A stretch of DNA of 64,000 nucleotides from a virus (IMGVR_UViG_3300042935_001404); one strand, 5' to 3'; shown: positions 65 through 31,975, numbered from the stretch's first letter. Numbers and translations are program-made. The notes: generated from the sequence alone by a model not told the origin.

Positions 65-1084
65 TTATAGATATGTTTCTAAGCCGCCTCGGCGTGTCAA
101 GTCCTGTGTACAGCAACTGATGCCACCATCCCAGAAGTAACTATGACGCAGTTCACTAATAATTGGATTGATACGATGCCGTTTACAGAAATCAAACACA
201 TCTCTGTTGTACGCACTGAAGATAACATTTTCTTCGTCCAGCACTAAACAATTGACATCAAACACTGTTTCGGCAACAAAGCCGGTCCATTTGTTCAAGT
301 ATGTGTCAACAAACTTTGTAAACTCCTGTGTGGGGGTTTGTCCTTGCACATACCATGCTCCAGGGCTTTGTTCGTACTTGAACTTGCCTATTTCCATGGC
401 TGCCCAGATACTGCTATCCCAAATCTTTAGCACTTCCCATCCTGGAAAGTCCTTGGCAAGATCTAAGTTGACATCGTGCTTGCTAGACAAAATAACACCG
501 GGCTTGAGAATAGCAAACACAGCATCGCCGTGGCCGTCTGTTACTGCTTCGTGTATACGATACTCTGGGCCCAAGCAGTTGTCCACAATCCAACGTGTTT
601 GTTCTGGCTTTAGATAATCACTGTTGTCAAAGAATACGTCACGCCCTACACGCACAATACAACTAGCACTTGCTTGGTTAAGAATGCAGTCAGCATCCCA
701 CCGACCGTTATGTGGACTGATCACTTGGTCTGCATATTCTGCACAAATGTCGTCCAGTTCTTCCATTGGTAACACACGCAGTAACTTTTGTCCCAGACTA
801 ATTTGCCAATCACGTGGAGTCAACGGAGGCAAAGGTGCACCACCGTTTTCTGTTTGCCACCACACAAATTGATCCTTGGGTGGTAAGTTGGGACGACGTA
901 CACGAGCACCATAGGTTTCGATGGTCTTTTGCAGGTTGTTTAAATCTTCCTCAGTCTCGGCTAGAATTTGTTGTAGTTGATTGCGCACCTGCGGATTGTC
1001 AATAAAGTCAAAATAATCTGGACTGTAAGCACGACCCACAATAACTTCTTCTAAGGGTTGCCAACTGGTGTAGGAATTAATCAT
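65..1084 (-). CDS. Amidinotransferase (glycine/inosamine-phosphate amidinotransferase, pentein family)
   Basis: N-terminal NSYTSWQPLEEVIVG, internal GHGDA and DVN, C-terminal DGGISCCTQDL match GATM/StrB1-type motifs. Confidence 0.85.
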   Translation of the reverse strand: MINSYTSWQPLEEVIVGRAYSPDYFDFIDNPQVRNQLQQILAETEEDLNNLQKTIETYGARVRRPNLPPKDQFVWWQTENGGAPLPPLTPRDWQISLGQKLLRVLPMEELDDICAEYADQVISPHNGRWDADCILNQASASCIVRVGRDVFFDNSDYLKPEQTRWIVDNCLGPEYRIHEAVTDGHGDAVFAILKPGVILSSKHDVNLDLAKDFPGWEVLKIWDSSIWAAMEIGKFKYEQSPGAWYVQGQTPTQEFTKFVDTYLNKWTGFVAETVFDVNCLVLDEENVIFSAYNRDVFDFCKRHRINPIISELRHSYFWDGGISCCTQDLTRRGGLETYL

Positions 1085-24003: not shown

Positions 24004-24280
24004 AAAAACCCTAGGCAGTGTTTAGACTGCCAATGCTTCCTTGGCTGTACGAGCAGAGAACTTGACGTTCTTACCAGAAACAGTTACGGTTTTGTTTACG
24101 TTTGCATTTACGTTTTTTGCTTGATTAACGGTCATCGCCTACCGTGCTGTCCACTTGTTTACTTGTTGCCCTGTCGAATCTAGTGCTCCCCCACCTAAAT
24201 ATACTGAATACATTTAGGTGGAGGAGGGGGGATTCGCACCCCCGTCCAAGACACTTTTCTCTTTGCTTCATACAGCAATA
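23971..24280 (-). ncRNA. ssrA: Circularly permuted (two-piece) tmRNA
   Basis: Acceptor piece (~24280-24217, T-arm GGGGG-TGCGAAT-CCCCC then CTCCTCC-A-CC) precedes a 24-nt spacer and the coding piece starting GGGGGAG-CACTAGATTCGAC (24192); G3.U70 pair; tag 24105-24022 ANVNKTVTVSGKNVKFSARTAKEALAV* with the stop codon in a hairpin loop. Confidence 0.92.
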
Positions 24281-24285
24281 ACTCT

Positions 24286-24293
24286 TATTTATA
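24286..24293 (-). promoter_or_regulatory. T4-type late promoter TATAAATA upstream of tmRNA
   Basis: Exact octamer about 6 nt before the acceptor piece. Confidence 0.6.
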
Positions 24294-24295
24294 AT

Positions 24296-24370
24296 TGGTT
24301 GCGGGGGAAGGACTCGAACCTCCGGCTTCCAGGTTATGAGCCTGGCGGTCTACCACTGACGTACCCCGCG
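24296..24370 (-). tRNA. tRNA-fMet(CAT), initiator-like
   Basis: C1:A72 mismatch, loop CT-CAT-AA; anticodon stem ends AGG/CCT rather than GGG/CCC. Confidence 0.88.
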
Positions 24371-31363: not shown

Positions 31364-31371
31364 AAAAAGAG

Positions 31372-31436
31372 GAGAGCCACGGTTGCAGGACCTAGTGTCT
31401 CGTTGCCGAGAGAAGTGTCCAGGCGATGTGGCTCTC
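31372..31436 (-). ncRNA. 65-nt rod-like hairpin between tRNA-Glu and tRNA-Asp
   Basis: GAGAGCCAC/GTGGCTCTC closing stem, GGAC/GTCC inner helix, TCTCG-GCAA-CGAGA apex. Confidence 0.45.
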
Positions 31437-31442
31437 AAAACT

Positions 31443-31517
31443 TGGCGGTCTGTGGGGGAATCGAACCCCCGTAAGTGGATAGACAATCCACAGTAATAAC
31501 CTCTATACGAACAGACC
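31443..31517 (-). tRNA. tRNA-Asp(GTC) with U37
   Basis: Stem GTGGA/TCCAC, loop TT-GTC-TA, G73. Confidence 0.92.
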
Positions 31518-31525
31518 AAAATCTA

Positions 31526-31758
31526 CTATTTTAAAACATACTAAAGGAACCATTGTGCATCTATGTCTACCTATAGGACCGTCTCCTATAGACCTGCACG
31601 GTCATTACTGCCTACATGCTCCGCCGCTTTTCTGGACATTTCTGCCCGGTTTCATGGACCTAGCTTGAGCGTGGGCGGCCCCACAGTCCTCGCCTTAGAT
31701 CCCTAACGGTGTAGGTAACCTTTAATACGTTTTAAAATAGCAACCCTTACGGGTTACC
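31526..31758 (-). ncRNA. Candidate ~230-nt multibranched ncRNA
   Basis: CTATTTTAAAAC/GTTTTAAAATAG closing stem; several internal helices with GAAA and GUAA tetraloops; no credible ORF. Confidence 0.6.
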
Positions 31759-31784
31759 AAAAACAACAACTTTTTAAAGAACGT

Positions 31785-31975
31785 CTAGTTAATTTCCTAA
31801 CTAGTCTCTAGTATAACACAATGGCTATATCTAGTCAATTTGTTTTGCAAAGTCCCTACACTGTGTAGGGTTATTTGCAGATCCAGCTAATTTCTTAACT
31901 TGTTTCTATTGTAGCAAAATGGCGTTTAATTGTCAACTTAGTACTTTAGTATACCCTACGCACTGTAGGGTTATT
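31785..31975 (-). repeat. Two ~100-bp tandem promoter modules (palindrome + sigma70 promoter + leader hairpin)
   Basis: CCCTAC-N5-GTAGGG at 31854-31870 and 31954-31970; TTGACT-N17-TATACT (31810-31838) and TTGACA-N17-TACAAT (31908-31936). Confidence 0.8.

Follow-up and report, generated by a model that had tools for sequence, protein, structure and literature searches.

The 64,000-nucleotide (nt) stretch of viral DNA that we analyzed (IMGVR_UViG_3300042935_001404; hereafter the window) holds a real gene for a structured noncoding RNA (ncRNA), and we regard it as secure that this RNA represents an uncatalogued family specific to giant freshwater phages. Measured from the first to the last base pair of its closing stem, P1, the gene spans 219 nt (31524..31742, minus strand), as placed by the minimum free energy (MFE) fold and by the match to a family model. 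The interval 31526-31758 had been flagged from the sequence alone as an unnamed multibranched ncRNA, which was borne out by the fold, by abundant covariation, and by the absence of a match in Rfam. The interval lies inside a block of 25 transfer RNA (tRNA) genes and a two-piece transfer-messenger RNA (tmRNA), all on the minus strand, which is therefore the strand to read for the element as well.

Read in this direction, 31765..31518 folded with an MFE of -88.7 kcal/mol (z score of -4.84 against shuffled sequences), and the segment trimmed to P1 (31742..31524) gave -82.0 kcal/mol and a z score of -5.37, with 0 of 200 shuffles folding equally well. The plus strand folded more weakly (-70 kcal/mol, z score of -3.4) because several of the pairs are G-U pairs on the minus strand only. 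A covariance model of the family, R1, matched the window over 31730..31536 with 195.8 bits (expect value [E] of 1e-52), and the window carries all the elements of a full-length member, namely P1, P2, P2a, P3, P3a, P4, P5, P6, and the GACGK loop.

None of the 4227 models of Rfam 15 matched minus strand 31524-31742 at the gathering score or at E ≤ 10, and only tRNAs and the tmRNA reached the gathering score in the whole window. In particular, ribonuclease P (RNase P) RNA, group I and II introns, self-cleaving ribozymes, and 6S RNA gave no Rfam match at E ≤ 10, in agreement with the sequence-only reading, which had seen no signature of RNase P, introns, or hammerhead. ARAGORN and RF00005 found the flanking tRNAs and no tRNA or tmRNA inside the element. 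Motif strings of the family led to unrelated literature only, an overlap with the unnamed motifs (≤151 nt) of a 2023 catalogue of viral structured RNAs being possible.

Covariation and noncoding status

Covariation was measured in two sets of homologues, the first comprising 87 distinct cores collected with probes from the 3' half of the RNA and the second, more diverse, comprising 70 distinct sequences collected with an independent 5'-half probe. In the first set, 96.9% of the cells paired and 27 of the 49 modelled pairs changed on both sides, compared to 31 to 45% pairing and at most 14 two-sided pairs when the partners were slid; no shuffle reached the observed values. In the second set, 94.8% of the cells paired and 35 of 49 pairs were two-sided, compared to at most 20 in the slid controls (pairing of the slid controls across both sets, 31 to 46%). 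Thus, neither a lack of covariation nor a match to a known family, either of which would have refuted the initial prediction, was observed. Helix P5 was invariant in the probe-biased first set but covaried in the independent one (8 of 9 pairs). Many pairs of the family are G-U pairs and hence valid on one strand only.

These data also show that the element is noncoding. A stop-free frame across the core was present in 1 of 87 variants in the sense direction and in 17 of 87 in antisense, and the core lengths spread over all three residue classes modulo 3. Antisense open reading frames (ORFs) of at least 60 amino acids overlap the RNA at 36 relative loci; given the broken frames and the spread of lengths, they are by-products of conservation. 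Such ORFs, and a long inverted repeat that looks like terminal repeats, would be the grounds for supposing that there is no RNA gene at all and that the element is a small protein gene or a DNA-level inverted repeat (a miniature inverted-repeat transposable element or a protein-binding site). A protein is contradicted by frames broken in most variants and by indels that are not multiples of three, a DNA element is contradicted by the single copy per genome, and both are contradicted by compensatory changes in seven helices with many G-U pairs that only one strand allows. Within the reach of sequence analysis, covariation, frames, and copy number rule this reading out, and the probability that we leave to it is negligible.

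Architecture of the RNA

In the RNA, the closing stem P1 leads into a three-way junction from which two domains branch, P2-P2a-P3-P3a-P4 and P5-P6; the length of the RNA is about 195 to 220 nt across the family. RNA positions are numbered as p = 31766 minus the window coordinate, and the elements are as follows, from 5' to 3'.

31742..31755, minus strand: leader hairpin AACCC-GUAA-GGGUU, directly 5' of P1 (fold and relatives)
31719..31742, minus strand: 5' strand of P1, a 24-bp A/U-rich closing stem (RNA 24-47), which pairs with 31524-31547 and covaries in both sets
31716..31718, minus strand: J1/2, UUA, invariant in alignment A3
31705..31715, minus strand: 5' strands of P2 and P2a (CCUACA, CCGUU), with partners at 31611-31616 and 31621-31625
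31656..31702, minus strand: P3 arm and P3a hairpin, with 8 of 10 pairs changing on both sides in the first set
31676-31679, minus strand: P3a tetraloop GCCG (GNCG throughout the family)
31649..31655, minus strand: J3/4, AUGAA(A/G)C, with A.GAA conserved at ≥97% in 142 variants
31634..31647, minus strand: P4 hairpin GGGCA-GAAA-UGUCC, a peripheral arm of variable length, with 3 of 3 modelled pairs covarying in the first set
31604..31610, minus strand: J2/5 joiner CAGUAAU, with GUAAUGA nearly invariant (≥97% in 142 variants)
31548..31603, minus strand: 3' domain (P5, internal loop, P6), with P5 covarying in the independent set and P6 in both
in 31548..31603, minus strand: P5, GACCGUGCA / UGCAC-AAU-GGUU
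31570-31594, minus strand: P6 hairpin, capped by A-GACGK-U
31579..31583, minus strand: P6 pentaloop GACGG, a near-universal motif
31560-31570, minus strand: 3'-side internal loop GUAGACAUAGA, conserved and purine-rich
31524..31547, minus strand: 3' strand of P1 (RNA 219-242), ending 6 nt before tRNA-Asp (fold and comparison)

Most of the helices drawn in the sequence-only reading found support in the comparison of relatives: the long closing stem, which has 24 bp in the window, CCUACA/UGUAGG (P2), GUGGG-GCCG-CCCAC (P3a), GGGCA-GAAA-UGUCC (P4), the GUGCA...CUAUAGG-loop-CCUAUAG...UGCAC arm (P5/P6), and the AACCC-GUAA-GGGUU hairpin. Two others had to be redrawn. The proposed CCGC/GCGG helix is in fact CCGUU/GGCGG (P2a), and the proposed CA-GUAA-UG hairpin is a conserved single-stranded joiner, (C/A)AGUAAU, in which GUAA is no loop; the first base of this joiner varies or is deleted with no compensating change elsewhere.

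P1 contains the G-U pairs U41-G225, G38-U228, and G25-U241, all valid on the minus strand only. Its length is bimodal, with 20 to 30 bp in about 51 of 87 variants and just 4 to 6 bp in about 30 of 87, and the long form has at least four versions of unrelated sequence. In the first set, the P2 and P2a helices were 99.8 to 100% paired, with C-G to G-C and G-C to A-U swaps. The P4-bearing segment between J3/4 and P2a varies from about 12 to 84 nt and has a GNRA loop in about half of the members. The leader hairpin is found in part of the family only, where it is preserved through G-U changes and replacement of GUAA by GCAA. A candidate extra pair between RNA positions 108 and 138 is based on two clades only. 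About 34 positions are ≥97% conserved in the 142 variants, mostly in joiners, a pattern to be read with the caution that the choice of search probes biases which positions appear invariant; the highest conservation is that of the unpaired joiners UUA, UAGG, AUGAA, GCGRYGGA, and AGUAAUGA.

A probable loop-loop contact between P3a and P6

The comparison of relatives makes a pairing of the P3a GNCG tetraloop with the P6 GACGK pentaloop, through two to three C-G pairs, a well-supported though not proven prediction. In the window, C185-G186-G187 of the P6 loop are complementary to G90-C89-C88 of the P3a loop (31676-31678). The three kissing pairs were 95.3% paired in the first set, compared to ≤42% when slid, and the outer pair (N88/K187) was A-U in 62, C-G in 11, and G-U in 4 variants. 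In the GGCA/GAUGC lineage of the diverse set, all three pairs have changed together, the inner G-C becoming A-U. The P6 loop reads AGACG in 127 of 139 members (AGAUG in 5, GGACG in 3), and its GACG is kept even where the 3' domain is remodelled. Such a contact probably locks both domains into a compact body. The initial prediction had instead suggested tertiary docking through GNRA loops; we rejected this as the main lock, as P4 is variable and its loop is of the GNRA type in about half of the members.

Two points weaken the proposed contact. The outer pair fails in a sizeable minority of variants (GCCG/GACGU in 18, GACG/GACGG in 10), and the dependable contact is therefore of two to three pairs. 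In addition, covariation cannot distinguish a contact within one molecule from a contact between molecules. The latter would allow the RNA to self-assemble, without protein, into a dimer or a larger cage with P1 as a strut, like a small ROOL, GOLLD, or OLE. Both conserved loops contain a self-complementary CG, so P3a/P6 pairing between molecules is possible, the covarying complementarity is compatible with a contact in cis or in trans, and the RNA shares its location in phage tRNA arrays with GOLLD and ROOL, a type of RNA for which RNA-only assemblies are reported in a preprint (bioRxiv 10.1101/2024.12.08.627333). However, the present RNA has a third to a quarter of the size of ROOL or GOLLD and no Rfam similarity, a contact of 2 to 3 bp is weak for intermolecular assembly, and two arms around a three-way junction are the exact geometry for an intramolecular kiss. 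We thus consider a cage unlikely and favor an intramolecular P3a-P6 contact.

Homologues and distribution

The 3'-half probes (two 14-mers and a gapped version) each reached at least about 120 loci in IMG/VR and JGI metagenomes, and the scans yielded at least 149 full copies with at least 87 distinct cores. The 5'-half probe added 93 further loci, where R1 matched 90 places, 70 of them distinct, down to 32 bits, and which include members with a rebuilt 3' domain. Both searches combined gave at least 142 distinct homologous sequences. All listed homologues lie on uncultured freshwater-type phage or metagenome contigs. Close copies, obtained by an exact-word scan and from loci reached via a neighboring peptidase gene, were 95 to 100% identical, with one at 77%, and the nearest record shares 23% of the 31-mers of the window. 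Three genomes rated 92 to 100% complete (320 to 347 kb) contain exactly one copy of the RNA each; two shorter RNA-bearing contigs were rated 11% and 29% complete and are therefore fragments of similarly large genomes.

Among isolate phages, none of 50,697 phage records was matched by three divergent variants in blastn, and megablast of the 8-kb neighborhood against isolate phage records was likewise negative. Among prokaryotes, a gapped-motif scan of 185,579 species genomes gave a single match, in a Terrimonas metagenome-assembled genome, which R1 does not match and which is hence due to chance. Altogether, the family occurs only in uncultured giant freshwater phages (about 320 to 350 kb), in single copy per genome.

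The tmRNA of the window (24022-24345, minus strand) is of the permuted type (RF04321, 129.9 bits) and is also matched by the betaproteobacterial tmRNA model, which hints at a betaproteobacterial host. Contig L425 carries two tandem copies of the RNA (89-287 and 315-518, minus strand). The second of these has lost the GACG loop (GGAAAGG instead), scores 116 versus 143 bits, and may be decaying or diverging. In a subfamily represented by L363, L447, L403, L365, L357, L410, L446, and others, P5/P6 is replaced by another 3' domain, AGUAAUGA-GAAGGCA...GGAGUUCC, in which a hairpin with the GACGG loop is retained. This subfamily amounts to a natural mutagenesis that is useful for defining the minimal core.

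Promoters, leader, and downstream tRNAs

The RNA is flanked by the following features.

31908..31936, minus strand: distal sigma-70 promoter, TTGACA-17-TACAAT (11/12, extended -10 TG)
31810..31838, minus strand: proximal sigma-70 promoter, TTGACT-17-TATACT (10/12, extended -10 TG)
31771..31804, minus strand: leader, with a GAAA-loop hairpin (31785-31804) followed by a boxA-like CGUUCUUUAAAAA (31771-31783)
31443..31517, minus strand: tRNA-Asp(GUC), directly downstream and starting 6 nt past the last P1 pair (Rfam and ARAGORN)

Both of the tandem promoters that the sequence-only reading had placed upstream of the RNA exist, 67 and 165 nt away from it in the window, and several sublineages preserve the GUUCUUUAA core 5' of the RNA. 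In 35 of 87 relatives, a sigma-70 promoter ends ≤60 nt before P1, mostly 5 to 13 nt before it, and many of these promoters are perfect (12/12, TTGACA-17-TATAAT), so that the transcript would start at the foot of the stem. Two near-identical palindromes, CCCTAC-N5-GTAGGG on the minus strand (31953-31971 and 31854-31870), each lie 15 to 17 nt upstream of the -35 hexamer of one of the tandem promoters and scored as terminator-like on the plus strand; candidate roles are those of operators or of terminators working in both directions.

Every one of the 367 tRNAs located up to 1.5 kb from a copy has the same orientation as the RNA. A tRNA follows within 300 nt in 48 of the 127 variants with enough downstream sequence, and the first one is Asp(GUC) in 32 cases, Glu(UUC) in 10, Leu in 3, Ser in 2, and Gln in 1, Asp and Glu thus accounting for 42 of 48. 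Where present, this tRNA begins 0 to 8 nt after P1. The Asp/Glu linkage is kept through at least eight gene orders, including RNA-Asp-Glu-Tyr, RNA-Glu-Tyr-Asp, RNA-Glu-Asp, Glu-RNA-Asp (with 6- to 7-nt spacers), and RNA-Asp with Asp as the sole tRNA, and through three different tRNA-Asp bodies. Other copies lie among small ORFs without assigned function, and the next promoter follows directly after the RNA. The small ORFs conserved near copies of the L026 type were rejected as partners, as they are absent from the window; no neighbor protein is common to the window and the L026-type loci, and a search for a partner protein starting from a 218-amino-acid neighbor gave no relatives.

The position of the RNA in the window, as the first element after two strong promoters and a boxA-like leader, would suit a cis-acting leader or sensor, riboswitch- or T-box-like, that controls read-through into the downstream tRNA genes, and a P1-closed junction locked by kissing loops is typical of large aptamers. 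The rest of the family fits such a control element poorly: it has no conserved expression platform, terminator, or element sequestering a ribosome-binding site, its downstream context varies between a tRNA, another promoter (in many relatives), and small ORFs, and some copies sit between two tRNAs with 6 to 7 nt on each side. Moreover, 79 of the 127 variants have no tRNA within 300 nt downstream, and no riboswitch family matches. We regard a sensor as quite improbable.

Several features of the tRNAs themselves were recorded. The anticodon loop of the tRNA-Asp(GUC) of the window (31480-31486) is UUGUCUA, with U37 and A38. Among the distinct tRNAs near members, a pyrimidine at position 37 is found only in tRNA-Asp, in 8 of 15 distinct Asp sequences and on two unrelated tRNA bodies. 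As changes in the anticodon loop of phage tRNAs have been proposed to evade anticodon nucleases (PMC10264068), U37 may reflect such an evasion or a specialized role. A second type of tRNA-Asp, 23 to 27 nt past the RNA core in L075, L043, L015, L270, and L321, has a normal UUGUCAC anticodon loop, an atypical D-arm, and the T-loop AUCGUUA instead of UUCGAAU; L270 and L321 carry both types. Between tRNA-Asp and tRNA-Glu of the window (31364-31442, minus strand), an 80-nt irregular hairpin (-31.8 kcal/mol, z score of -4.26) rises from a 9-bp base, GAGAGCCAC/GUGGCUCUC, to a tip capped by GCAA, with CCUCUUUUU after it. Close relatives of the window have this hairpin, whereas the Asp-Glu pairs of other clades do not; it is a candidate terminator or attenuator within the tRNA operon, or else a further small RNA.

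The frequent neighborhood of tRNA-Asp also bears on the P6 loop, whose invariant GAC could be read as a codon-like specifier, pairing with the GUC anticodon of this tRNA. tRNA-Asp is the commonest immediate neighbor and often has the unique loop UUGUCUA, in which GUCU is complementary to AGAC, and the sole common variant of the P6 loop, GAU, is also an Asp codon. However, the C and G of GACG covary with the P3a loop, with G-C changed to A-U in the GGCA/GAUGC lineage, and this covariation accounts for both the conservation of GACG and the C-to-U variant. Furthermore, the loop is unchanged beside Ser, Leu, or Glu tRNAs, most members have no nearby tRNA, and U37 is alternatively explained by evasion of anticodon nucleases (PMC10264068). 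Mainly because the same bases covary with the P3a loop, we demoted the specifier to a very improbable reading and attribute the conservation of this loop to its contact with P3a.

Maturation and function

The explanation that we favor, to which we assign about an even chance, is that an independent gene produces a stable, highly structured RNA of an uncatalogued family that acts in trans and is matured by the tRNA-processing machinery. The host sigma-70 polymerase would make the RNA early and abundantly. In many relatives, the perfect consensus promoter would set the transcription start at the foot of P1. With promoters 67 and 165 nt away, the RNA of the window needs trimming of its 5' leader (67 nt when made from the proximal promoter), plausibly by RNase III cutting in the 24-bp P1. 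RNase P, cutting at +1 of tRNA-Asp 6 nt past P1, would produce the 3' end. With both ends predicted to be buried in a long helix, the RNA should be long-lived. It might then act in trans, its conserved junction surface binding a conserved host component, which we advance with low certainty. As the RNA is the sole element common to differing neighborhoods, its partner is probably such a conserved host component or the RNA itself. With similarly low certainty, a role in translation or tRNA metabolism is suggested by the linkage to Asp/Glu tRNAs and by the translation genes around the RNA.

Several observations count against this scheme. Every processing step is deduced from the gene layout. The 4- to 6-bp P1 of about 30 of the 87 variants means that a long stem of the RNase III type is not essential to the family, and the 79 of 127 variants that lack a tRNA within 300 nt downstream mean that RNase P is no general 3'-end maker. 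Finally, the Asp/Glu linkage could reflect inherited gene order and not function.

The RNA could also generate its ends by itself, as a ribozyme that cleaves itself out of the operon transcript, or it could act as a ribozyme on tRNA-Asp or tRNA-Glu. The roughly 34 positions conserved at ≥97%, many of them in junctions, the compact pseudoknot-like fold, and the closeness to particular tRNAs are in line with catalysis, but no known ribozyme family matches, neither end has an evident conserved cleavage-site context, and RNase P and the transcription start already explain the ends in many relatives. A ribozyme is thus a slim prospect next to maturation by the tRNA-processing machinery.

A bolder version of the trans-acting RNA, which we put forward as a long shot, is that it serves as a phage-made effector of host translation, its compact body, locked in the manner of a tRNA elbow or an Alu domain, docking on the ribosome or on a tRNA-Asp/tRNA-Glu enzyme, or being catalytic on those tRNAs. 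If so, giant phages would remodel host decoding of acidic codons by means of an RNA and not a protein. Conservation in single copy, together with the linkage to tRNA-Asp and tRNA-Glu, suggests a role in phage takeover of translation. Orphan structured RNAs of such size and conservation are rare and have repeatedly led to riboswitches, ribozymes, and RNA-only cages. The present one lends itself to experiment, being about 200 nt long, with a well-supported secondary structure, a contact that is open to compensatory mutation, and, as a further practical advantage, predicted ends defined by a consensus promoter and an adjoining tRNA.

Comparison with known systems

The purine and lysine aptamers and the 5' domain of the signal recognition particle (SRP) Alu RNA resemble the phage RNA in having a closing helix, a junction with conserved joiners, and arms tied by loop-loop pairs. 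The phage RNA differs from the purine and lysine riboswitches in that it has neither an expression platform nor a constant downstream gene, and no riboswitch model matches it. The SRP Alu 5' domain carries a UGUNR turn. Its likeness to the phage RNA includes the topology, with two arms whose loops are joined by G-C pairs, and the near-invariant GUAAUGA joiner, of the GUAAU type, between them. This likeness, the block of 25 tRNAs and a two-piece tmRNA, and the linkage to tRNA-Asp/Glu would be consistent with a mimic of the SRP Alu domain or of the tRNA elbow that docks on the host ribosome or on a tRNA-handling enzyme and reprograms translation. However, the joiner is AGUAAU and not UGUNR, purine and lysine riboswitches share the topology, which is hence not diagnostic, and membership in the SRP family was rejected, as no SRP model matched the region at E ≤ 10 and RF01854 gave nothing in the complete relative genome G003. 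We judge such a mimic to be a minor possibility.

In the window, the gene layout also recalls a ribosomal RNA (rRNA) operon, with tandem sigma-70 promoters, a hairpin and the boxA-like GUUCUUUAAAAA, a 24-bp stem around an RNA, and then tRNAs. It differs in that the enclosed RNA measures about 170 nt and is unrelated to rRNA, that the roles of Nus factors and RNase III are putative, and that many relatives have no leader, transcription starting at the stem. GOLLD (RF02032) and ROOL (RF03087) are likewise ornate orphan RNAs of phages or prophages, with long-range loop contacts and often located beside tRNA genes, and the name GOLLD includes "lake-derived," the freshwater habitat being common to the family described here. 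Both are three to four times larger, the 195 to 220 nt of the present family falling short of a GOLLD/ROOL size threshold of 500 nt, and neither RF02032 nor RF03087 matches the window.

Homology to rnaC and rnaD of phage T4 was rejected on the scores of R1, which, run with filters off on T4 69000-74000, gave ≤6.8 bits and hit neither rnaC nor rnaD on their strand. The T4 RNAs also differ in size (139 and 119 nt versus about 195 to 220 nt). The T4 RNAs, GOLLD/ROOL, and the SRP Alu domain are thus analogues, not relatives, and the T4 RNAs are the nearest in gene context. The genes rnaC and rnaD (species 1 and 2) encode non-tRNA RNAs in a phage tRNA cluster, co-oriented with the tRNAs and abutting them, a gene layout that the RNA described here fits; according to their annotation, they are stable and matured together with the tRNAs. 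They were found 50 years ago, and a tractable second example beside them would make the role of non-tRNA RNAs in phage tRNA clusters testable.
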